NCBI RefSeq assembly: GCF_028285745.1 | Contig: NZ_JANQOP010000042.1 | Coordinates: 1 to 20,210, forward strand | Source of the DNA: Acaryochloris sp. IP29b_bin.137 | GTDB taxonomy: Bacteria > Cyanobacteriota > Cyanobacteriia > Thermosynechococcales > Thermosynechococcaceae | DNA length: 20,210 nt | Direction: 5' to 3' | In this document: positions 1 to 15,356 of the stretch, piece by piece | Layout: each line of letters begins with the position of its first letter | Position numbering within the stretch: the stretch's first letter is position 1 | Made by a program: the position numbers and the translations under genes | Notes under the pieces: model-generated | What the model was told of the DNA's origin: nothing | What the model saw: the letters and a program-made list of their open reading frames with translations, nothing else | The model's database searches: none

Positions 1-159
1 TTCATTTAGACGCATCGACTGCTGAAAAACCAACTCTGTGGGATTGAACATAAATTCAATATCTTTACTCTTGTCCGTGGGTTGGTGGACTAAAGTTGCC
101 TTGGCTAACTTGCCTGAGGCAACGGCACTATTATTACTGCGAGAACCACTATAGGTCAT
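1..159 (-). CDS. Partial CDS (N-terminal 53 aa, runs off the left edge): tube-initiator-like protein of a contractile injection system or phage tail (Afp7/Pvc7/Cis7-type N-terminal region)
   Basis: My own reverse-complement translation from ATG at 159..157 gives MTYSGSRSNNSAVASGKLAKATLVHQPTDKSKDIEFMFNPTELVFQQSMRLNE, open to base 1. The L-x-KA-x-[ILV] ... [IV]-x-F-x-FNP-x-E pattern is what I recall for the N-terminal domain of CIS tube-initiator (often LysM-containing) proteins. It starts 29 nt downstream of the giant ORF stop on the same strand. It is absent from the supplied ORF track because it is truncated. The family call rests on memory of a short motif only. Confidence 0.5.
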   Translation of the reverse strand, partial: MTYSGSRSNNSAVASGKLAKATLVHQPTDKSKDIEFMFNPTELVFQQSMRLNE

Positions 160-188
160 GGTTTATTTTCAACCTTTTCGTTAGAACA

Positions 189-3100
189 TCACCAAGGCAA
201 ACGACCGGAATGATACCCTCCATGTCGTTCTCGTTCGACTTCTAAGCGCTGACGCAGGACATGATAGATCTCCCTTGCTAGGATTTCGAAATTTTGCTCG
301 TCTACTTCAGATTCGGTGGGCTGTTCTGTTTGGAACTGGCGCATCACCACTTCGGTGGTTGGAGGAGTGGAAGAGACCGGAGGCGTTGCAGATACCTTTT
401 GCACGGTTTGGGTCCGCTGGATGGGAGCAGGTTTTCGTTGGACTTGCTTCTCAGGATAAATTCCAGTGGGGGTGAGGACTAAATCTGATGTAGTTACAGA
501 CGCTGGAGAGGGCGATTTTGTTTTACGTTGGACGATTTTAGGTGATTGTGGTTGAGCTGTGAATAGATCTTCGATACTAGACCAACTTGAAGGGAGTGCC
601 TGGTCTGAACGACTATTTGAGCGCTGTATTGCGGGCGCGATCGCACCCTCTACACCTACCTCCAAAGTATCCTCAAAACTTGCCACATCTCCAGAAACAG
701 AGACTAGATCTGGTGGAGCATCTAGACTTGGGAAATGGCTGGGTGCCTGGGATTGGCGCTTAGGTTTACTGGTAGGCAAAAGGCTACTCAGGTGCTTAGG
801 AGAAACCAAGTTATCTGAAATGCTGGACAAGGGCGAGGGAGCCTGGCCGTTCGCCAGTAGCTGAGCAACGGTTAGATCTGGGGAGTTTCCTTCAGATAGA
901 TCTGATTCAGGGGGTTTAGCCGCTAACTCAATAACTCGTCGTTGAGGAGAATCTGTAGAATCCGACGAAGTATGTTCTTCTTCTATCTCCTGATGGGCTC
1001 CATCAGGAGTGGCTTCTGCTTGGCGCTGAACTATTGGTTGATTTAGTTCTAATGATTGCGACTTAGTTGAAGTGAGAGGGGGACCAATATGATCTGCTGT
1101 GGAAGCCTGAATATTTGAATCAGCACTTACTTGAGGAACTTCTGCAACCTCGGATTTTTGTGCAGTATCAGGAGATGATTCTGTATGAGTAAGGCCAGGA
1201 CCTGCTTCTGTCAAGGAAGCGTTGTTTTCCAACTTTGGTTGAAGAGGTTGATTCTGGTTTAGGTCGGAGGATGGACTTGACGATAGCTCTGGAGCGGGCG
1301 GGTTAGTCGTTCCACTATTCTCTTCGGGGAGCTGAGCTGAAATTTCTATCACCCGACGATGGGAAGAATCTATCTTGTCCGGTTGAGGCTGGATGCTTTC
1401 TGATACTTGAGGGGATGAATCAGCAATATTTTCAGTTGTAAGTTGTTGTAATTCTGGAGTTTCTGTGTCAGAAATATTCGGATGGGTTGGGGCATTGGAA
1501 TTAACCTGATCCGAATTGTTTGAACTTGAGGTGGATAGGGTCGAATCGGACTTTGTATTGGGCTGATGAGTAGATTGAATGATTCCTGACTCTTCTGAAA
1601 TATCGGTAGGAGCCGCATTAGGGGTGTGAGATTCCTCTACTGTTGAGGATTGAATGACGGGGGCTAATTCAGACAGATCAACGGAAGGTGTGACGGTTGG
1701 TGGAGTTTGCGACGAAATCTGTGGTGCAATTTGCTGTGGTTCGGATGGCTCAGTTGATTGGGAAAGTTGGCTATCTGAGGTGGGTTGTATGGAGAGATTA
1801 TCTTCAGCTTTTGAAGTTGATGCTTGAATGCGATCGCTCTCATCAAACGATTGACCAGAGATCGCTTGCTGAGGCTGTGATTCAGCCTTGGGTTGAACCA
1901 CGGAAATCTCAACAGTTTGAATTGGAACATTAGAAGTTGGCTTAGATGCCAGATTTGATTCTTCTGTGGTTGATTCTGACGGCGCAGAAGGATCTTCTAA
2001 TTCAGGAGTTTCAGAGGCTTTTAGCTGAGTGTTTTCTGGTTCGCTAGTCTCAGTACTCAGCTGAATAATGTCGTTCGTCCCGGCGGTATTTATACTCGCG
2101 CTATCGCTTGTATTTAGGGGCGCAATATTATCTGCAGTGTCTGAGGCAGAATTAGGGCTTTGAGGAGAAGCAATATTCGTATCATCGGCTATAGCAGGCG
2201 ATGAAATCGTTTCAGAAACGTTCTTCTCGGTCAGATCTACTTTGGCTTGAATCGTAGGAGAAGGATGATCTTCCTGAATGTCGAAGTCTTGCCCTCCATC
2301 TGGGAATGTTTTGTTATGAGTACTATCCAGATTGTGGCCAGACGTTTGGGTTAATGAGTCGCTTACATTGTCGAAATTGGGTCTGAAGGTTTGAACTAGG
2401 GATGTTGAGGGATCAACTCCTAAACCACTAACCTCGATCTCAGAAATCTCATTAGCATCATTGAACTTACTCTCACTGGAAAGCTGGTTTTGTTCTGCCC
2501 TAGAGTGCTGGGCAGATGAATGGGGGTTAGGTGTGAGCTGCTGTTGAGGTTGAATCGGGTGAGTTGTTGATGGATATTCAACCTTAGTCTGAATAGAAAT
2601 TTCACCAATGGGCGGACATTCTGGAGATGTTGATGCTGTTGCCGGGACAGTTTGTTCTAGTGAATGTTGAATATCAGAGTCTGGTAGAGAAGGTGTAGAT
2701 TGATCTTGAGTAATGTGCTGTGGGGATAGGCTATCTTGATCGGCGGATGGGTTGGCTAGTGGAGTCTGAGTATCGGATATTCCTAAATCCTCTTGAGGGA
2801 TTTTTTGCGCCTGGACAGGTAGTACAGTTTGAGGATGCGTATTTGAGACGGTGGAACCTGTTGATTGTTTTATTGAATCATCAACGGGCTGTGATGTTTG
2901 TGGATGAGATGTGGCTTGATGTTGGATTGGGTCTCCTTCACTACCCGTACTTGGATTAGCGGCTGCTTGCGCTGATACTTCACCTTGAGAAACGTAATCT
3001 TTCTGAGAAGCAAGTCGCCTCTCATTTGAAGTAGACGGAGAAGGAAGTTCTGCTTTTCTCTGAATATTGGGTTCGTTGGCATAGCTTGAACTCTCTATGT

Positions 3101-6100
3101 CTGGGGGATTAGAGTCGGTTCCTTCAGCAGAGATGGGCTGTGGTTGGATAAATTCTGATGTGTGTGAATTCAGCTCAGCGGAGCTATCAACTAAGGGTGA
3201 AGGAAGATCAGATGCAAGATTTTCTGATTTTGGGGAGTCAACAGTGGCTGATGGTTCGATTCTTGGAGGTTGGTCTGAGACCATCTCATTCTGCACCGGA
3301 CCTGCATCATCCTTTTCACTAATATGCTGACTTTGTACTGCTATATCTCCCGTATTGGGTGATGCTTGTGTCTGAACAGTTGGTGGTTTTGAGATTTCTG
3401 GCTGATCCGTAGATTGAGAGATTTGATCTGGTACAGAATTTGAGGCAGGGGGGATTGAAGGGGTTGACGTCTTCTCGCTGGATAGTTGGGCTGGAGATGT
3501 TGACTTCTGTTTTTTTGTCTTGCGTTTGGACTTCGCCTTTTTAGGGCGCAAATTCGCTAGCTGCTGAACAATGGTTGTTCCTATTTTTGAAATAGGGGAA
3601 TTGAGGGGATTGTTGCGATCGCGACTTTGAGACGATTCAGAGATTACAATACTTTGATGGTCTGGACTCACAGACGTTAATTCAGAGCTATTTTGAGACT
3701 TCTGGATAGAGTTCTTATTTTGCGATCGCAACGTCGCATCACTTTGTTCTGAATCTTGTTGTGGCGTCTTAACCTCTGCTTCATCAATAGAGTTAGTTTG
3801 AATCGGAGGCACTGCGTTTACTTCTGCTAGATTATTATCTTCGTCTAGTGAAGGCGTAACGACAGAGTTTCCACCAGTTTGCTCCAGACTTTCTATTGCA
3901 GAGTTAGATAGAGGAGCGAGTTGTACTGGATCAGTCTCTAAGGTTTGCTCCTTACCTGAGTTCGGCTCAGCAGAAGCCTGAATATTATCTTCATTAGACT
4001 CAGAAACATCTGCAGGTTGTATGGATAGGTTGGTCTCTGCAACACCGAGGGATTGAGTTGGTTCAACCGAACTCGCTTCCTTCGCTGACTTAGGCTTCGA
4101 CAATGGATCTTGTGAAATTTGTCTTCGTATCGACCGATTAACCCTCTCTTTAATTTTTGATCCTAGATTGACGAGTTCATCTGCGACTTGATTCTGAAGT
4201 GCTTGCCACTCAGGTTTAACCACATTGGATTGTGATTCTGATTTCGAAAGAGAGGCTGGTATCTGCTTTTCCTGAGTCGAGGGTTCCCTAGAGCGACTCG
4301 GAGCGGATATTTTCTCAGGTTGAAGAGGCACAGATCCTAAAGGTGGGGATTCTGCTGTCTGCGAAATGGGAAATGATTGAGTTTGGAGATTTTCTTCGGT
4401 TGTTTTCTGAATAGGAAGATTGGCTAGACCCTCTTGGCTCCCTTGAACGCTAGCACTGGGTGAAGACTGTGAACTAAGATCTGCATCCGGTGCTGAAGGT
4501 TGGGCCTGAGTGCCTGGCAGTGCCGAACCTGCTGTGATGTCATTAGAGTTTTTGTTATTACCAGGTGTGGGTTGTTGGGGGTGTTTGCCTTCAGCTATCG
4601 TTCTTTGAGATGGGACAGTTCCACTGGTGTGTTCTGCACTAATCTGCGCTGATGCGCTGGATGGGGTTTGTTGAGGGATAGCACCCTCATCAGGATGAGG
4701 CTCAATCTGGCGACTGACGGTATCCACAACCTGCTTACTGAAGCTGGTCAGCCGTTGCAGGGGTTGTGTTGGGAATTGTCTTCGCTTTTTTGACTTAGCT
4801 CGAGAAGAACTAGCCCCAGGACTAGAAACTATATCACTAGCCTTTTTCTGCTCTGCACTGGACTGCGATGCTGATGATTCAGATTCAATTTGATTTTGTC
4901 TAGTACCCTTGGAATTAGGGATAGGCTCAGACACCTCTGTGATGTCAGAGTTTGAGTCAGGATGTTTGTCTCGCTGAATTGTTGGCTCTGATATCTGCGT
5001 TTGTATTGGCGTAGAGGAAGGATGCTCTTGGGAGGAGTCATCTGATTCAGGGATTGCTTGAACAGTTGAAGCATTCTGTTGATGGTTGACAACCTCAGCT
5101 GCCTTTGGAAGCGTTTTTTCTGGAGAAGCTGTTTGCTCTGAGGCCTGCGTTTCGCTTTGGATTAGAGATAATTCCGGAGATGATTGTTTTGAGTCTGGAG
5201 ATGATGCGGCTGGAAGCGATGGAGTATTGGACGGTTGGAGTTGAGGGGAATTACTCGTGGAGCCTCTTTGCCTTGCCTTAGTTTCTGATTTGCCGATGGG
5301 GAGAGAGTCCGAAGCCTGCTTGAGCTGCTTACCAACCTTGTTAATATCCTGTTTAGCCCGTTCCCCCGCTCGCAAGAGCTGAGTTTGCAAGGGAATCTTT
5401 TTCTGTTTGCTTTTTTTGCTCTGTTTCTTCTGTTTTGTAGCAGATGTTTCAGTTGATGCCTGAGGAGAATGACTGTCTGATCTTTGGAGAATTTTTTCTT
5501 GTATCGCCTCCCTATCTGCCTTAATCGAAGAGCTAAGTGTAGAGGGATTCTCTGTTATTGAGGGTTCATGACTAGAACTAGTTTGTTTAGTCTCTACCGT
5601 TGGTGTAAGTGGGGTATCAGTAGTTGTCTGAGCCGTAGAACTCTCTTTTCTTTGAACACTTGTTGTCTCGATTGGTCTCCCGCTAGTCTGGGTTAGATCG
5701 TTAGGTGTCTTGTAACTCTCCTCCTGTAAAGGTTGATCATCAGGTGATTGTTGAGTGAAGGGTTGGGCAACTCTTTGGACAGTTGTCGGCTCTGTTGATT
5801 TCTCGTTGATTTGGACTGGAGTGCTGGGTGTTGCAGTATTTTCGATTGGTAGGCCATTGCTAACCGGGATGCTTGGATTAGTCTCTACTCTTGGGTTGGC
5901 GTGAGGAGACTGTGAGTTACTCGTTTGCTGATGGTTAGAAGGACTAGGAGATGACTTTACCGTCTGATTAATAGGCAAATCTGTGGTTTTGTCAGTCGAT
6001 CCTTCTGACGGTATAGAGACCCCATCCTCTTTGTTGGCAGCAGGGACATCTTGTGACTTTTGACTCGAAACGGATGGAGACTTTGCAAGTTGTATTTCAG

Positions 6101-7397
6101 AAACTTGCTGTTCCTGGTTTGGAGCAGGCAGAGGCGCTTGGCTCGAAGCTGACAGAAACTGTGCGCCAGAGACTTGCTGTTCCAGGCGATTAGGATTGTG
6201 TTCAGAACGTGGAACTTCTGGGGCTGATACTTCTTTGTTTTGGCCAACCAATTCTTTTGGCTTAGATTGAGCTACAGAAGTATCGTTGAAAGATGAAGCT
6301 TCTGGGTAGCTGGGTTGAAGGTGACCAGAGGTCTCTGAGTCTTTGATTGAAGGTGAATCAGAATGAGTGGGTTTAACAAGAGGCAGGGATTCTTGGTTAG
6401 GAGGCTTTACGTCTGAGTTTCTATGAGTTGCCTGTTCTCGATGATTAGAGGGGCTCTCTTGAATTGTGGGGAGCACAGAATCAGTATTGTCCAGAGGTTT
6501 CGCCTGAAGGGGCGATACTTCTGGTGGATGGGCAAAAGGACTTACTTCCTTAGAGCCTTCGGGGGGAGGATGGGCGATTGATTGTTGCTTAGTTTGGTCT
6601 GATTTTTGTTTGGACTCCTGATTAGGTTGCTCTGAAACCACCGCTGATGCTTGATAGCCTGAAGCATTTTCTGTTGGGGAGGGAACTGAGAAATTTGTAG
6701 ACTCTTGAGACTGAGGTTCAGTAGCTGGAAAGCCAAGTTCAGGAGCTTGGATCTGTTTGGGTTGAAGAGCATCATTAGGACCGCTTTGATCTGGATCAGT
6801 CTGCCTGACTGACTCAGCCTGATCAGAATGGGGGCTGGAAGACTGTGGAGAGATCGGATGCTCAGATGGAGGTTGAGCTGGGGAAGTTACTAGGGATTGG
6901 TCATCATTTAGAGCTGAACTAACCTTACTGGATGGCGACTGTTCTAATTCTGTTGCCGGAGCTGCATTGCTGGGGCTTATATCGGCATTGTTTGCAGTTG
7001 GTGGCTGTTCCTGATGGGCTGAAACTGACTCTGGTGGGGGTTGAAGCCTCTCGACGGATGCTTTTGGCATAAGAGCTTTGGGCTGTGCAGCTTCAGGAAA
7101 CTGGATTCCGACGGATGGAGAAATATGGGTATGACCTGAAAAGCTGTCGTCAATTATTTCCGTTGGCCCTTGAGCAGAGAAACGGTTATAAAGAGTATTT
7201 TCCCTGTCTTTTTCACCTGTTAGAGAAGTATCCAAATTGATTAGAGATACTGCACCTAAGGGAGACAGAGTATGAGGTTGGAGAAATGATTGTCCCAGCG
7301 CAGGGGGAGGTAGCAATGGATGCCTAAGACCAAGCGAGTCTGAGGAAGGAATCTCTTCCGGTAGGGATTGGTGACCTTGGCCTGAATTGATATCCAT
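189..7397 (-). CDS. Giant (2,402 aa) S/P/Q/T/E-rich, predicted intrinsically disordered protein in the tape-measure slot of a CIS/phage-tail-like operon, with a short conserved C-terminal amphipathic RER tail
   Basis: An uninterrupted 7.2-kb ORF cannot plausibly arise by chance. ATG at 7397..7395, TGA at 191..189. It lies between the tube gene (12 nt upstream) and the initiator-like gene (29 nt downstream). By eye it has 1 Cys, about 3 Trp, no signal peptide, no TM segment and no recognisable catalytic motif. It contains 4 HIP1 sites (637, 1830, 3615, 3722). The functional label comes from synteny only. Confidence 0.9.
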   Translation of the reverse strand: MDINSGQGHQSLPEEIPSSDSLGLRHPLLPPPALGQSFLQPHTLSPLGAVSLINLDTSLTGEKDRENTLYNRFSAQGPTEIIDDSFSGHTHISPSVGIQFPEAAQPKALMPKASVERLQPPPESVSAHQEQPPTANNADISPSNAAPATELEQSPSSKVSSALNDDQSLVTSPAQPPSEHPISPQSSSPHSDQAESVRQTDPDQSGPNDALQPKQIQAPELGFPATEPQSQESTNFSVPSPTENASGYQASAVVSEQPNQESKQKSDQTKQQSIAHPPPEGSKEVSPFAHPPEVSPLQAKPLDNTDSVLPTIQESPSNHREQATHRNSDVKPPNQESLPLVKPTHSDSPSIKDSETSGHLQPSYPEASSFNDTSVAQSKPKELVGQNKEVSAPEVPRSEHNPNRLEQQVSGAQFLSASSQAPLPAPNQEQQVSEIQLAKSPSVSSQKSQDVPAANKEDGVSIPSEGSTDKTTDLPINQTVKSSPSPSNHQQTSNSQSPHANPRVETNPSIPVSNGLPIENTATPSTPVQINEKSTEPTTVQRVAQPFTQQSPDDQPLQEESYKTPNDLTQTSGRPIETTSVQRKESSTAQTTTDTPLTPTVETKQTSSSHEPSITENPSTLSSSIKADREAIQEKILQRSDSHSPQASTETSATKQKKQSKKSKQKKIPLQTQLLRAGERAKQDINKVGKQLKQASDSLPIGKSETKARQRGSTSNSPQLQPSNTPSLPAASSPDSKQSSPELSLIQSETQASEQTASPEKTLPKAAEVVNHQQNASTVQAIPESDDSSQEHPSSTPIQTQISEPTIQRDKHPDSNSDITEVSEPIPNSKGTRQNQIESESSASQSSAEQKKASDIVSSPGASSSRAKSKKRRQFPTQPLQRLTSFSKQVVDTVSRQIEPHPDEGAIPQQTPSSASAQISAEHTSGTVPSQRTIAEGKHPQQPTPGNNKNSNDITAGSALPGTQAQPSAPDADLSSQSSPSASVQGSQEGLANLPIQKTTEENLQTQSFPISQTAESPPLGSVPLQPEKISAPSRSREPSTQEKQIPASLSKSESQSNVVKPEWQALQNQVADELVNLGSKIKERVNRSIRRQISQDPLSKPKSAKEASSVEPTQSLGVAETNLSIQPADVSESNEDNIQASAEPNSGKEQTLETDPVQLAPLSNSAIESLEQTGGNSVVTPSLDEDNNLAEVNAVPPIQTNSIDEAEVKTPQQDSEQSDATLRSQNKNSIQKSQNSSELTSVSPDHQSIVISESSQSRDRNNPLNSPISKIGTTIVQQLANLRPKKAKSKRKTKKQKSTSPAQLSSEKTSTPSIPPASNSVPDQISQSTDQPEISKPPTVQTQASPNTGDIAVQSQHISEKDDAGPVQNEMVSDQPPRIEPSATVDSPKSENLASDLPSPLVDSSAELNSHTSEFIQPQPISAEGTDSNPPDIESSSYANEPNIQRKAELPSPSTSNERRLASQKDYVSQGEVSAQAAANPSTGSEGDPIQHQATSHPQTSQPVDDSIKQSTGSTVSNTHPQTVLPVQAQKIPQEDLGISDTQTPLANPSADQDSLSPQHITQDQSTPSLPDSDIQHSLEQTVPATASTSPECPPIGEISIQTKVEYPSTTHPIQPQQQLTPNPHSSAQHSRAEQNQLSSESKFNDANEISEIEVSGLGVDPSTSLVQTFRPNFDNVSDSLTQTSGHNLDSTHNKTFPDGGQDFDIQEDHPSPTIQAKVDLTEKNVSETISSPAIADDTNIASPQSPNSASDTADNIAPLNTSDSASINTAGTNDIIQLSTETSEPENTQLKASETPELEDPSAPSESTTEESNLASKPTSNVPIQTVEISVVQPKAESQPQQAISGQSFDESDRIQASTSKAEDNLSIQPTSDSQLSQSTEPSEPQQIAPQISSQTPPTVTPSVDLSELAPVIQSSTVEESHTPNAAPTDISEESGIIQSTHQPNTKSDSTLSTSSSNNSDQVNSNAPTHPNISDTETPELQQLTTENIADSSPQVSESIQPQPDKIDSSHRRVIEISAQLPEENSGTTNPPAPELSSSPSSDLNQNQPLQPKLENNASLTEAGPGLTHTESSPDTAQKSEVAEVPQVSADSNIQASTADHIGPPLTSTKSQSLELNQPIVQRQAEATPDGAHQEIEEEHTSSDSTDSPQRRVIELAAKPPESDLSEGNSPDLTVAQLLANGQAPSPLSSISDNLVSPKHLSSLLPTSKPKRQSQAPSHFPSLDAPPDLVSVSGDVASFEDTLEVGVEGAIAPAIQRSNSRSDQALPSSWSSIEDLFTAQPQSPKIVQRKTKSPSPASVTTSDLVLTPTGIYPEKQVQRKPAPIQRTQTVQKVSATPPVSSTPPTTEVVMRQFQTEQPTESEVDEQNFEILAREIYHVLRQRLEVERERHGGYHSGRLPW

Positions 7398-7409
7398 AAA
7401 CTTTGCAAG

Positions 7410-7973
7410 TTAGTTACTGGGGTAAAATCCTCCGGCATTCGTATCTCTGCCTTTTAAGAAGGTGGCCCCACCGCCTGCATTACTGCTGGGTTGCAGATTG
7501 GCAACAACTTTTAGACCTTCATAGGCCAGGGTGAGTTCTTCGATCGCAACGGTGGATGCATCCGCTTGGAGGGATGGCGCTTGCCAACCCACGGGAACGG
7601 CACCAATTAAGGTCCAGGTCTGTATCGTTTCTCCCGCTTGATTAAATAGGAGAATGTTGATATTACGACGCTGAGGATTGACATTGCGATCGCTGGGCTC
7701 TAGCTGGGTGAGCATCCGACTGGCCCATCCCCAAAACACCAGATCATTGGTGATCCCCCGTTTGAGGGTGACATCGGAGAATTCGGTTTGGCCGAGGATA
7801 ATCCGCTGTTGGTTGTTAACACCACCTTCAAAGTAGGTGTCATGCTTAATTTTGGCGCTTAACCCTGAACATTCGCTAAAGCAAGCACTGATATAGCTCT
7901 TCTCTTGGATCTCGACATAAAAGCGGTTGGCGGTGACATAGTTGAGGTTATGGGTTTCGCTGTTGCTGGCCAC
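7410..7973 (-). CDS. Phage-tail/CIS inner tube protein (T4 gp19-like, TIGR02241/PF06841 type; Afp1/Afp5/Pvc1/Cis1-like) with a roughly 32-aa Gly/Ser/Asn-rich C-terminal extension
   Basis: The translation shows the family hallmarks: ANRFYVEI..., FSECSGL, YFEGG, FSDVTLKRG, LVFWGW, INILLFNQAGE, TW.L....P..W, VAIEELTLAYEGL. GTG start at 7973..7971 overlaps the upstream stop (TAGTG). TAA stop at 7412..7410. Confidence 0.85.
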   Translation of the reverse strand: MASNSETHNLNYVTANRFYVEIQEKSYISACFSECSGLSAKIKHDTYFEGGVNNQQRIILGQTEFSDVTLKRGITNDLVFWGWASRMLTQLEPSDRNVNPQRRNINILLFNQAGETIQTWTLIGAVPVGWQAPSLQADASTVAIEELTLAYEGLKVVANLQPSSNAGGGATFLKGRDTNAGGFYPSN

Positions 7974-8428
7974 TAATATCGCCCCCCATAGTTCTGCTGC
8001 CGCTCACGCTGATATTGCAAGTCGTTTTGCATCAGTTCATAAATACGATCGCACAATTTCGATTGCGCCAGGGGATCTTGCAAAACTTGAGACGCGAGTT
8101 GCATAACCGCTTGACGCTCTGGAGGACTAACGGATAACTCTAAATAACGATATCCAGCAGGGGGTGGACCGATTCCCCACTGACCTCTCTGTCCTTGATC
8201 CCCTTGGTTCATCTGCCTAAATCCCCATAAGACATTCTGTCCATCCATAGCCAACCCATCAGCAATATTGGGGTCGGGGGACCGCTTATTACTGTATGGC
8301 TCTACCGGAGCTGTCGAAAGTAGACCAAAGTCTAACTTGTCAAGTTGCTCTTCTGTATGCCAGGAATGAACGCATACAAAATTGTAATTTTGGCTTTCCT
8401 GGAGCATAGGAAAACTCAAAGGGGTCAA
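7973..8428 (-). CDS. Hypothetical 151-aa protein, first gene of the tube operon; its C-terminal tail resembles the C-terminus of the giant protein
   Basis: The ORF-track start at 8428 is TTG. An ATG alternative lies at 8407..8405 (MLQESQNY...). Its stop TAG (7975..7973) overlaps the tube GTG by 1 nt, which suggests translational coupling. I recognise no domain. The C-terminus is LCDRIYELMQNDLQYQRERQQNYGGRY. Confidence 0.6.
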   Translation of the reverse strand: MTPLSFPMLQESQNYNFVCVHSWHTEEQLDKLDFGLLSTAPVEPYSNKRSPDPNIADGLAMDGQNVLWGFRQMNQGDQGQRGQWGIGPPPAGYRYLELSVSPPERQAVMQLASQVLQDPLAQSKLCDRIYELMQNDLQYQRERQQNYGGRY

Positions 8429-13063: not shown

Positions 13064-13441
13064 ATGCGTGGACTTGTTTTAACCCTACTTGCAACAGCTC
13101 TCAGCCTATTAGTGGTCGATTTCGTGTTTGCAGGCGTTGAGATTGCCAACTTTCCTGTTGCGATCGCAGCAGCCATATCGATTGGTATTGTCAATGCCAT
13201 AGTTAAACCGATCCTCACCATTCTCTCGTTTCCCCTAACCTTGTTAACCCTGGGAGGATTCTTATTAGTCCTGAATGGGATCTGTTTTTCTCTGGCATCC
13301 GTATTTGTGCAAGGCTTTCAAGTGCATGGTTTACTAGCATTCTTGTTGGGGCCAATTTTGCTCTCGTTGACCAACGCATTCTTGAATCGGTACTTGATCA
13401 CAGATACGCCTTCTCAAGGGACGGATGGGGAGCGCTCCTAA
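13064..13441 (+). CDS. Small four-TM membrane protein, phage holin family IV / DUF360 (YvlD-like)
   Basis: 125 aa, highly hydrophobic. The NAIVKPILTILSFPLTLLTLGGFLLVLNG pattern matches my memory of PF04020 proteins. Confidence 0.6.
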   Translation: MRGLVLTLLATALSLLVVDFVFAGVEIANFPVAIAAAISIGIVNAIVKPILTILSFPLTLLTLGGFLLVLNGICFSLASVFVQGFQVHGLLAFLLGPILLSLTNAFLNRYLITDTPSQGTDGERS

Positions 13442-13482
13442 TAACGAGGTCTTGCTTGGAACCCTGACTCTGCTGGCCCCTA

Positions 13483-13773
13483 TTAGCCTGCGATTAAATC
13501 TCGTGTCAGTACTTCAAGGGGAGGATGGATGGCCACCTTCACTTTCAACGGACAGCATAATTCTTTCCGAGATTGAGCCAGTTCTCGAATCAACAGCAGC
13601 CGGGATTGAAGATATGCTTTGGTATTGGCTTCCTCGCTAGTAGGCAGCAAGTTGCGCTCTTTAAGATTAGTGAGCAAGACTTGAACCAGTTGTTTGTCAT
13701 TGAGTTGTGTGAGGACATCGGTCTGAGTCGTTTCAATCACTTCCCAAACTTGTCGGAGACGATTGGAATTCAT
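13483..13773 (-). CDS. Hypothetical small protein (96 aa from ATG 13773; the longest ORF extends to 13911)
   Basis: MNSNRLRQVWEVIETTQTDVLTQLNDKQLVQVLL... looks protein-like. The 46 codons upstream (13774..13911) are AT-rich and look like promoter DNA. No family recognised. Confidence 0.4.
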   Translation of the reverse strand: MNSNRLRQVWEVIETTQTDVLTQLNDKQLVQVLLTNLKERNLLPTSEEANTKAYLQSRLLLIRELAQSRKELCCPLKVKVAIHPPLEVLTRDLIAG

Positions 13774-14023
13774 TACAGTCACCCTAGGTGAGGGTTTTTC
13801 TTGTCGAAAACTGAGTTTAGAACACGTTTTAATATTTTCTTTATATTTGCTTCCTTCCAATTCTACGCTTATCGTTGAGCAACCCACTGTCAGATCAACC
13901 ACAAAACACATAAATTAACTTGAGCAACATATAAGTTAACTCCTGGGTGCAAAGGATTGCACAAATTGAGGAGTGACGCCTCCGCAAGTGAGAGGGGAGA
14001 TGGGCAGACGGCCATTTGGAGGG

Positions 14024-14521
14024 TTAGATACTTAGAATTCGCCCCAGCCAAGTATCGGCTTTTTGCTGAAGCTGATGCTTGCGTTCCCATCGGCGGAACG
14101 CCTGTTCGTAGGCTTCATCGCCAGTGTGGAAGACATTCCAGGCATTAAGTCCCAGTCGGAGTCCCCACAACAGGGCAATATAGAGGGACCAGGGGAACGA
14201 AAATCCCATTAAGGCATTGACTAAGATGAGACTGGAATTTGCGATCGCATATCGTCCGGCTTTCTTGCGTAAATTGGCCCGACGGTACTGATCGAAGCTT
14301 TGCCGCCTAGCCAGCTCGCTTTGCTGAGTTTTGACGTTCTGAATGGCTTGGTCTAGCGTGGGCTGGGGGATGCCAAGTTCTTCAGCAATTTCGAGAAGTT
14401 GGGCATGGGAAAACTCGCCATCGTAGTCTTGTTGCGCGATCGCAAGGTTTAATATTTGCTGAACTTGCTCTTGGCTGTAGGTCAATGTGGCTTTTGAGGG
14501 GTTAATGGCCATTCCATACAA
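14024..14521 (-). CDS. 2TM domain-containing membrane protein (cyanobacterial type, with an N-terminal helical soluble region)
   Basis: The N-terminus (YSQEQVQQILNLAIAQQ...LLEIAEELGIP) is followed by a two-helix hydrophobic hairpin (YAIANSSLILVNALMGFSFPWSLYIALLWGLRLGLNAW). The start could be M1 (14521) or M4 (14512). Confidence 0.65.
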   Translation of the reverse strand: MYGMAINPSKATLTYSQEQVQQILNLAIAQQDYDGEFSHAQLLEIAEELGIPQPTLDQAIQNVKTQQSELARRQSFDQYRRANLRKKAGRYAIANSSLILVNALMGFSFPWSLYIALLWGLRLGLNAWNVFHTGDEAYEQAFRRWERKHQLQQKADTWLGRILSI

Positions 14522-14744
14522 TCTCTTGCCTCATTCTAATTATTGCAAATGGGAAAGGATCAACTTCAAGATCTGAGTCGAACGAACCCTAAACCTGTCC
14601 TCAAACCCATCAATCCCAAAAGCGGTGGCTTGAGGGGAGAATCGGCTGGGCGAAAGCTTTGCTGACGTTGGGTATGGAGACAGGCCAACGGGTACGGTAA
14701 TTTCTACAGTTGGGCCCAAGGGACAAGCGGAGGTTAAGCCGCAA

Positions 14745-15356
14745 CTACCAAATTTGCCTCATTTTCAATCGGAATCCAGGGAGTTCTGGCTCACAATTCA
14801 CAAATTCTGGGTTGTTTAAGATCTCAGGCGGCTTGTGGGGGCGGTAAACACGGACTTGGCAGCTTTTTCGATCAATGAGTAACCCTAATCGCACACCATT
14901 TGCCATATACTCCTCCATCTTCTCCTGCAGTCTGATCAGCGAATCACTGCTAGACCGTAGCTCTACCACAAAATCCGGTGAGATAGGGGCAAATGAAGCC
15001 TGCTCTTCTGGGGATAGCGCTTGCCAACGCTCAGATTGGATCCAAGCTGCATCTGGAGAAAGGGTCGCGCCATTCGGTAAAGTAAAGCCAGCGCTAGAAT
15101 CAAACACTTCTCCAGTATTGTTTTTATCTGCCCAGTTACCAATTTGTTGAGCGATTTTGAAATTCCGATTTCCTGTATCGGCAAAAGCAGGTGGCATAAC
15201 GGTGACTTCCCCACTAGCGCTGCGTTCGATGCGGAGTTCTGGGTTGGTACGGCAAAATTCGCAGAACTGCCGGTAACTCATTTGTTGAGTTGAGATCAGC
15301 GCCGAGAGATCAATCGGCAATGAAATTTTTTCGGATTTGACAATAAGGCTAGTCAT
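14745..15356 (-). CDS. Uma2 family endonuclease (DUF820, putative restriction-endonuclease-like fold)
   Basis: 203 aa. Motifs typical of the cyanobacterial Uma2 family are present: ELRIERSASGEVTVMPP, GNRN, LSPDAAW, PDFVVELRS.SD, GVRLGLLID. Confidence 0.85.
   Translation of the reverse strand: MTSLIVKSEKISLPIDLSALISTQQMSYRQFCEFCRTNPELRIERSASGEVTVMPPAFADTGNRNFKIAQQIGNWADKNNTGEVFDSSAGFTLPNGATLSPDAAWIQSERWQALSPEEQASFAPISPDFVVELRSSSDSLIRLQEKMEEYMANGVRLGLLIDRKSCQVRVYRPHKPPEILNNPEFVNCEPELPGFRLKMRQIW

Follow-up and report, generated by a model that had tools for sequence, protein, structure and literature searches.

In contractile injection systems (CIS) of the Afp type, the slot between cis5 and cis7 holds the gene for a spike plug of about 50 amino acids (aa), Cis6/Alg6/Pvc6, which trimerizes in the spike cavity through its C-terminal helix and directs a loop toward the lumen (PMC8894135, PMC8894136, PMC12546770). 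Cis14, a separate helical protein, is the tape measure of these systems; tape measures span 0.15 nm per residue in lambda and 0.22 to 0.23 nm per residue in extracellular CIS (eCIS) (10.64898/2026.05.27.728243). For lineage II, homologues of Afp6 and Afp14 are reported to be largely absent (PMC6899500), and the tape-measure gene is stated to be missing from Streptomyces coelicolor and S. lividans, yet their particles are a uniform 268 nm long (PMC12237407, PMC10066040, PMC10286715). In 2024, Nagakubo et al. described a tape-measure-related CIS effector, Tme (BN159_7576), from Streptomyces davawensis; this protein of 2,247 aa is about 70 % disordered, combines DUF4157 with membrane helices and an EndA-like nuclease, and binds both the spike and the initiator, and its gene directly precedes those of the hub (PMC11126660). 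In the current study, we analyzed a stretch of 20,210 nucleotides (nt) from Acaryochloris sp. IP29b_bin.137 (contig NZ_JANQOP010000042.1; hereafter the window), in which a single gene between a Cis5-like tube gene and a tube initiator gene encodes a 2,402-aa, almost entirely disordered protein, which we call the slot protein. It is best viewed as a variant, fully disordered and without domains, of the tape-measure-position or Tme-like proteins of this CIS branch, with a plug-like C-terminal helix.

The open reading frame (ORF) is real: the same protein is called, identical, on an independent Sequence Read Archive assembly, and the frame is intact in A. marina MBIC11017, the nearest genome to the window, with a ratio of nonsynonymous to synonymous substitution rates (dN/dS) of ca. 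0.4. A preliminary description of this DNA had reported an ORF rich in S/P/Q/T/E/N and poor in aromatic residues and Cys, and the composition bears this out (S 16.7, P 10.9, Q 10.0, T 8.0, E 7.6, and N 5.0 %; F, W, and Y together 1.6 %; one Cys). It had also seen no repetition at the DNA level; consistent with this, Tandem Repeats Finder returned a single 35-nt array (score 33), and the direct repeats in the gene are short, two-copy chance pairs only. When the protein was compared with itself, we obtained compositional alignments only, plus a duplication of RRVIE; the slot protein of one relative (locus L023) is strongly self-similar. AlphaFold2 models built from the single sequence had a mean predicted local distance difference test score (pLDDT) of 33.6 for aa 1 to 1200 and 33.3 for aa 1203 to 2402, with values below 50 in 2,280 of the 2,400 modelled residues, and contained helices only at aa 670 to 698, 1063 to 1096, 1269 to 1280, and 2365 to 2391 (ca. 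100 residues, or about 4 %). Statistics independent of these models point the same way. There is a proline every 9 residues, Pro-free stretches have a median of 7 aa, and those of 30 aa or more hold only 10 % of the residues; the net charge is -135, and a charge-hydropathy plot places the protein on the disordered side of the boundary. We found neither a membrane-like segment (the highest 19-residue hydropathy is 0.82) nor a signal-like N terminus. The near-total disorder first described, for which disorder prediction had been proposed as a check, is thus upheld by the models and the sequence statistics alike, as is the argument from Pro-rich composition against a helical ruler: because of the Pro-free stretch lengths and the small helical share of the models, a continuous (canonical) helical ruler is excluded. 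The plus strand of window positions 1 to 7500 has a GC skew of +0.12 to +0.34 and an AT skew of -0.09 to -0.31, both of which stop at the gene boundary and presumably arise from the bias of the coding strand toward Ser/Pro/Gln/Thr codons.

The gene is separated from the tube gene by 12 nt and from the initiator gene by 30 nt, and there is therefore no room for a separate small gene; as first described, it is the sole gene between the two. To place this arrangement in context, 35 related cyanobacterial loci were gathered by a tube-protein scan. In 35 of 35, the slot after the Cis5-like tube gene holds an S/P/Q/T/E/N-rich ORF, and the complete ORFs (237, 407, 822 to 1,174, or 2,050 to 2,496 aa) have repeated PLG motifs at the N terminus, a low-complexity middle that varies in length, and a helix at the C terminus, with the initiator and VgrG genes directly after. 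One complete cluster (L011) runs contiguously through an AAA ATPase, a Pvc16_N cap protein, the sheath, three tubes, a chaperone (phrog_508, 4e-5), the Cis5-like tube, a slot protein of 2,144 aa, the initiator (CIS_tube, with a weak match to P2 GpU), VgrG (Phage_GPD), and PAAR; other loci run on with homologues of gp25, Baseplate_J and P2_I. The L011-type order mirrors FI-FII-E-T-U-D of phage P2, with the slot gene at T, and the complete cluster contains no other tape-measure candidate. This P2-like synteny and the gene order of the window both agree with the tape-measure position that the preliminary description had assigned.

The C-terminal form of the family is LE.LA(R/Q)E(I/V)Y.L(L/I)RQRL..E(R/Q)ER.G (in summary, LAREIYxLLRQRLExERERxG). 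An exhaustive search with a profile of this region recovered 764 protein clusters at E<=1e-3 (276 at E<=1e-10); in nearly all 764 the motif ends 16 to 17 aa before the C terminus, one composition is shared throughout, and the longest member reaches 3,170 aa. The named clusters are cyanobacterial and carry the label “hypothetical protein,” and they include Gloeothece PCC 7822, Pantanalinema, and Floridanema. Word-indexed searches were weak for this purpose (the C-terminal 177 aa returned one fragment, the C-terminal profile returned ten, and a full-length protein from S. clavuligerus, described below, returned no match), and it was the exhaustive profile search that revealed the family. The only match in a scan of viral contigs with the C-terminal 70 aa spans 15 residues of a high-GC contig in a non-coding frame, and we dismissed it as chance. 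The slot protein belongs to a large, uncharacterized family and is no accident or insertion. A normally empty slot filled by an unrelated insertion, which the preliminary description had named as a refutation of its own proposal, fails because no orthologous locus leaves the slot empty. Within the family, the slot protein of Calothrix parasitica NIES-267 (L012 10523-13345) has the C-terminal helix motif twice, as LEILAHQIYKIIRQKLENDRESQG and then, about 45 aa on, as MNILAREVYNLISIRLHTERERYSY; two matched stretches occur in several family representatives too. In another locus (L017 7397-10897), the slot protein is 1,166 aa long, compared with 2,050 to 2,496 aa in seven Leptolyngbya-clade relatives (L011, L016, L020-L023, and L032), and its termini are near-identical to theirs; it looks like a natural half-length variant, of use for testing the ruler idea.

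The termini of the slot protein are conserved, and its middle evolves freely. The A. marina MBIC11017 orthologue (2,418 aa) is 46 % identical and differs by about 52 insertions or deletions (indels). Between the same two genomes, the tube gene has a dN of 0.019 and a dS of 0.83, and the slot gene a dN of 0.44 (about 23 times that of the tube gene) and a dS of 1.06; over the last 213 codons of the slot gene, dN is 0.21. Blocks conserved with A. marina are aa 1 to 57, 660 to 703, 880 to 902, 1254 to 1299, 2004 to 2020, 2153 to 2208, and 2299 to 2402. The preliminary description had singled out the first 110 and last 250 aa as ordinary-looking sequence; both ends do indeed contain conserved sequence, but a predicted fold is found only in the final helix. 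In relatives, an L-x-P-L-G-V-L module lies at a distance from the C terminus similar to that of the aa 2153 to 2208 block. The Lys-rich patches at window positions 5384 to 5443 and 3489 to 3563 (aa 652 to 671 and 1279 to 1303; KQKKQSKKSKQKK and RPKKAKSKRKTKKQK) resemble nuclear localization signals (NLS) or cell-penetrating peptides (CPP) and are kept in A. marina; in a scan of 19 complete slot proteins, the sole other such patch was found in locus L010.

We also found that the tripeptide [IVL]Q[RK] is enriched in the slot protein, with 14 occurrences against 2.6 expected (z=7; 0 of 500 shuffles reach 14), five of the form [IV]Q[RK] being closely spaced near the C terminus from aa 2289 on. The looser form [IVL]Q[RKTAPS] occurs 47 times against 18.5 expected, and the reverse dipeptide is not enriched. 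In Leptolyngbya-clade relatives there are up to 50 copies of [IVL]Q[RK] against 2.3 expected (z up to 32), spaced 46 to 63 aa apart in visibly repeated, degenerate units, and because these relatives carry regular motif units, the window protein looks like a decayed array. The motif recurs in eCIS_core (DUF4157) effectors from related loci, whose disordered N-terminal regions contain 59 copies of [IVL]Q[RKTA] where 6.3 are expected. In AlgoCIS, a disordered N-terminal region is required for cargo loading into the tube lumen (10.64898/2026.05.27.728243). In this respect the slot protein resembles eCIS lumen cargo, being disordered and sharing a system-specific motif with effectors of related loci.

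The preliminary description knew of no characterized precedent for such a protein, a statement that is now outdated, since Tme matches it in size, disorder and position (PMC11126660). Like tme, the slot gene is the largest ORF of its cluster, lies directly upstream of the initiator and spike genes, encodes a mostly disordered protein of more than 2,200 aa, and belongs to a Streptomyces-type CIS; the nearest non-cyanobacterial relatives of the sheath, at 40 to 42 % identity, are from Streptomyces, Kitasatospora, and Deinococcus. Tme likewise carries a CPP-like segment. Unlike Tme, the slot protein has no predicted membrane helices or coiled coils, no remote tape-measure homology and no C-terminal nuclease, it is ca. 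95 % rather than 70 % disordered, it has the [IVL]Q[RK] array, and its C terminus is a helix in place of the enzyme domain of Tme. DUF4157/eCIS_core had no Pfam match in the slot protein (E<=0.1) or in its L023 relative (E<=0.01), and it was readily detected in the Kitasatospora and Deinococcus slot proteins (1,243 and 1,506 aa, respectively) and in the effectors of locus L031. The Deinococcus slot protein ends in a similar helix, and its C terminus scored 14.4 bits against the cyanobacterial profile, more than any of 900 shuffles; the Kitasatospora C terminus is similar by eye but scored only 0.2 bits, and we do not claim it. On the S. clavuligerus plasmid pF1D18A, a 1,381-aa Pro/Ala/Gly/Thr-rich ORF that is absent from the PLSDB gene table lies between chaperone-like and Cis5-like tube genes (L040 16786-20931, plus strand). 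It has 20 copies of [IVL]Q[RK] against 0.5 expected, about 20 PAVQR(T/A)P motifs (z=28), and a similar, only marginally scoring C terminus ending in LDRLARRLVAPLSRLLRAELRGDRERVGRLRDG, and may be an actinobacterial counterpart of the family.

Comparison with the other components known from this part of a CIS gave a mixed picture. As with the Cis6/Alg6/Pvc6/Afp6 plug, the slot gene lies between cis5 and cis7 and the product has a predicted C-terminal alpha-helix of ca. 27 aa; but at 2,402 aa the protein dwarfs a plug of about 50 to 60 aa and has no sequence match to the solved plug chains, and, unlike in plug systems, a separate 79-aa protein with a paralogous helix is encoded upstream of cis5. 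In its position relative to the chaperone, tube and hub genes, as the largest gene of its module, and in its conserved termini and length-variable middle, the slot gene resembles those for Afp14/Pvc14/Alg14, P2 gpT, and T4 gp29. These proteins have a helical center, whereas the slot protein has about 4 % predicted helix and no family-level homology to them. With the loading sequences of DUF4157 cargo (Cgo1/Cgo2; PROCIS preprint), the slot protein shares disorder, acidity and the [IVL]Q[RKTA] motif, the last as it appears in the effectors of related cyanobacterial loci; but those sequences are 100 to 300 aa long and precede a folded effector, whereas here the whole protein is, in effect, a loading sequence that ends in a hub-type helix, with no folded or catalytic domain downstream by Pfam, NCBIfam, or AlphaFold2. 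Searches of the PDB with the C terminus, its profile, and the small 79-aa protein returned chance matches only.

Based on its position and synteny, its conserved termini and free middle, the near-total lack of predicted structure, and the motif common to cargo loading regions, we are somewhat inclined to regard the slot protein as the counterpart, in Streptomyces-type (“lineage II-like”) CIS, of the phage tape-measure and Tme proteins, threaded unfolded through the lumen. That it resides in the lumen and docks to the hub seems to us quite probable. By analogy with phage tape-measure C termini and the small Cis6 plug, the C-terminal helix (aa 2365 to 2391) would dock where the VgrG spike and the Cis7/Cis5 initiator rings enclose a cavity; the N-terminal PLG region would mark the distal end; the acidic, Pro-rich middle of some 2,300 aa would lie unfolded in the tube, which would polymerize around it; and the chain would be expelled on firing. 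Most likely, the protein occupies the lumen and acts as a scaffold for assembly, making the contacts that cargo also makes. Whether its length also sets that of the tube is another matter, and here we lean against a positive answer while regarding it as possible. The tube of ca. 360 nm estimated in the preliminary description needs a helical rise that the sequence rules out (the same 360 nm would apply to the protein as a helix, and 520 to 550 nm by the empirical eCIS slope). A blob model of a 4.5-nm lumen, with about 60 residues per blob and ca. 0.07 to 0.1 nm per residue, would give very roughly 180 to 250 nm for 2,402 aa. Calibration of nanometers per residue on S. coelicolor failed because no slot orthologue could be identified there; in that organism, the genes may be laid out differently, as a divergent promoter lies between sco4248 and sco4249. 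The family might set tube length through the confined extension of the unfolded chain or through one [IVL]Q[RK] unit per tube ring, with cargo N termini mimicking the motif, but we consider this improbable.

Several observations weigh against the proposed tape-measure-like role. No sheath, wedge, cap or ATPase gene lies within 10 kb of the hub modules in Acaryochloris and Gloeothece, and the slot protein has no homology to tape-measure, plug, or Tme families (Pfam, NCBIfam, and PHROGs at E<=0.1; PDB). In S. coelicolor, the lumen density depends on Sco4256-4258, with no such protein involved (PMC10066040). Docking of the C-terminal helix is something that we infer, and the hydrophobic moment of this helix is unexceptional, being matched by 16 % of shuffles. 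AlphaFold2 was run without an alignment, and the low pLDDT of single-sequence runs is by itself weak evidence of disorder. Finally, slot proteins range from 220 to 3,170 aa and vary 2-fold within one clade (1,166 versus 2,050 to 2,496 aa), so that a strict ruler would imply 10-fold differences in tube length.

This 10-fold range would be easily explained if the disordered chain were purely a payload: a Tme-like effector minus DUF4157, fixed to the spike through its C-terminal helix and delivered by injection, with linear motifs and Lys-rich NLS/CPP-like patches that act in the target cell and with no role in tube length. In Tme there is a characterized effector in the same position (PMC11126660), and [IVL]Q[RK] is common to cargo loading regions; the middle of the slot protein evolves rapidly (dN/dS of 0.35 to 0.58), as is typical of host-facing proteins, and the Lys-rich patches are clade specific. 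Moreover, the hub module, standing alone as it does, is reminiscent of orphan VgrG-effector islands, and Acaryochloris has no adjacent DUF4157 effector. Nevertheless, we think a pure cargo unlikely, if by no means negligible. The slot protein has no folded or catalytic domain anywhere, the complete cluster offers no other candidate for a ruler, and the slot is filled in every locus, even in those with separate DUF4157 effectors, which suggests structural necessity.

A further reading is a ruler of a new physical kind, in which the disordered chain would set tube length by confined-polymer extension or by one [IVL]Q[RK] unit per ring. All characterized tape measures are helical (10.64898/2026.05.27.728243), but Streptomyces-type CIS are uniform in length with no tape measure reported (PMC12237407, PMC10066040, PMC10286715), homologues of Afp14 are reported to be absent from lineage II (PMC6899500), relatives of the slot protein are degenerate arrays of 46- to 63-aa units, and our own blob-model estimate for 2,402 aa falls at 180 to 250 nm. 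Within clades, moreover, lengths stay close even at less than 50 % identity: six Acaryochloris-clade orthologues span 2,223 to 2,474 aa (coefficient of variation, 3.6 %; standard deviation [SD], 85 aa), and three others span 1,018 to 1,050 aa. By our arithmetic, however, a random walk of the ca. 52 indels between two orthologues would give an SD of about 116 aa, and because the observed spread is no tighter than such a walk would allow, we claim no length constraint. Given also that the L017 protein is half the length of its clade and that members of 220 to 240 aa occur in loci with full baseplate genes, a disordered ruler seems to us more improbable still than a pure cargo. The preliminary description had further raised a tether or anchor, and one might add a decaying or non-functional gene. 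Size and disorder are all that speak for either, and no tool result points there; a tether is without support given the lack of a membrane segment or signal-like N terminus, and decay is at odds with a 7.2-kb ORF that is intact in six Acaryochloris-clade orthologues, with dN/dS below 1, with conserved termini, and with a family of 764 clusters. Both strike us as very improbable. The slot protein as a lumen-threaded, tape-measure-like component remains the reading that we prefer. The features of the gene, its product and the adjacent CIS genes are listed in Table 1.

Table 1. Slot gene, regions of its product, and adjacent CIS genes in the window
Feature	Window positions	Strand	Remarks
Slot gene, 2,402-aa intrinsically disordered protein	189..7397	(-)	Stop codon 189-191; ATG start
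N-terminal conserved region, aa 1-57	7227..7397	(-)	(S/P)LG...PLLPPPALGQSFLQP...SPLG motifs common to family; no predicted fold
Island 1, aa 652-703	5289..5444	(-)	Lys-rich patch KQKKQSKKSKQKK, then predicted helix 670-698; kept in A. marina
Island 2, aa 870-902	4692..4790	(-)	Basic patch RAKSKKRRQ, then conserved LQRLTSFSKQVVDTVSRQIEPHP
Island 3, aa 1063-1097	4107..4211	(-)	Predicted helix EWQALQNQVADELVNLGSKIKERVNRSIRRQ
Island 4, aa 1254-1299	3501..3638	(-)	Short predicted helix 1269-1280, then Lys-rich NLS/CPP-like patch RPKKAKSKRKTKKQKS; kept in A. marina
SHRRVIEIS motif, first copy, aa 2004-2020	1338..1388	(-)	Conserved block versus A. marina
Second motif RRVIEL and conserved Leu/Pro block, aa 2153-2208	774..941	(-)	Conserved block versus A. 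marina
C-terminal conserved region, aa 2299-2402	192..503	(-)	Ends in family signature FEILAREIYHVLRQRLEVERERHGGYHSGRLPW
Predicted C-terminal alpha-helix, aa 2365-2391	225..305	(-)	pLDDT up to ~82; proposed hub-/spike-docking element
Tube initiator (Cis7/gpU-like, CIS_tube family), first 52 codons	1..158	(-)	Starts at nt 158; leaves window
Cis5-like inner-tube adaptor, 187 aa	7410..7973	(-)	Phage_T4_gp19 2e-36; 95 % identical to A. marina
Small 79-aa protein (gene call on L037)	7973..8212; longest ORF to 8428	(-)	Directly upstream of Cis5-like tube gene

Among the neighboring genes, the best NCBIfam match of the tube gene is CIS5_fam, at 73.6 bits, well under the curated cut-off. The initiator begins MTYSGSRSNNSAVASGKLAKATLVH...FMFNPTEL, and its full-length orthologue matches PF19266 CIS_tube. 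The C terminus of the small 79-aa protein, KLCDRIYELMQNDLQYQRERQQNYGGRY, scored 12.9 bits against the slot C-terminal profile, whereas the best of 1,200 shuffles reached 8.3; its C-terminal helix is paralogous to that of the slot protein. In L011-type loci, the phrog_508 tail assembly chaperone is found at the position of this small protein, which might be a chaperone, the true plug, or a rival for one and the same docking site. The remaining genes of the window are ordinary cyanobacterial housekeeping genes (HU, aminotransferase, GST, GcvP, and ChlB), amid which positions 13064 to 15356 encode a PF04020 holin-family membrane protein, a 2TM-domain protein and a Uma2-family endonuclease, for which we saw no link to the CIS.

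The wider clusters differ in their extent. In Acaryochloris (L037 1227-12236; L038) and in Gloeothece PCC 7822 (L044 9097-16231), only the hub module is present, lying among unrelated or housekeeping genes; it comprises the small protein, Cis5, the slot protein, Cis7 and VgrG, to which Acaryochloris adds a PAAR-like gene. On a Pseudanabaena plasmid (L039), by contrast, the complementary cap-sheath-tube half is all that is present, and since both kinds of partial cluster exist, split clusters do occur. A tblastn search of plasmids with the sheath as the query had no Acaryochloris record among the best 25 of 144 matches. In many loci, a protein of about 810 to 850 aa is encoded directly upstream of the hub module (L044 5770-8986; L003, L004, L006, L009, L012, L028, and L030); in Gloeothece it is PBP_like_2, with an FHA protein next.

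For the control of length and the loading of the lumen in Streptomyces-type (“lineage II”) CIS, the slot family is a testable candidate for the missing component: it is adjacent to the hub and conserved, its termini are candidates for docking, its unfolded middle evolves freely, and it has a linear motif common to cargo loading regions. The slot protein offers a good experimental handle on both questions, and Acaryochloris marina MBIC11017 and Gloeothece verrucosa PCC 7822 are culturable hosts. A role in measuring length would make it the first molecular ruler of a tail-like machine that is not helical. If instead it is cargo, then an entire payload can be a “loading sequence,” which would be useful for engineering delivery systems.

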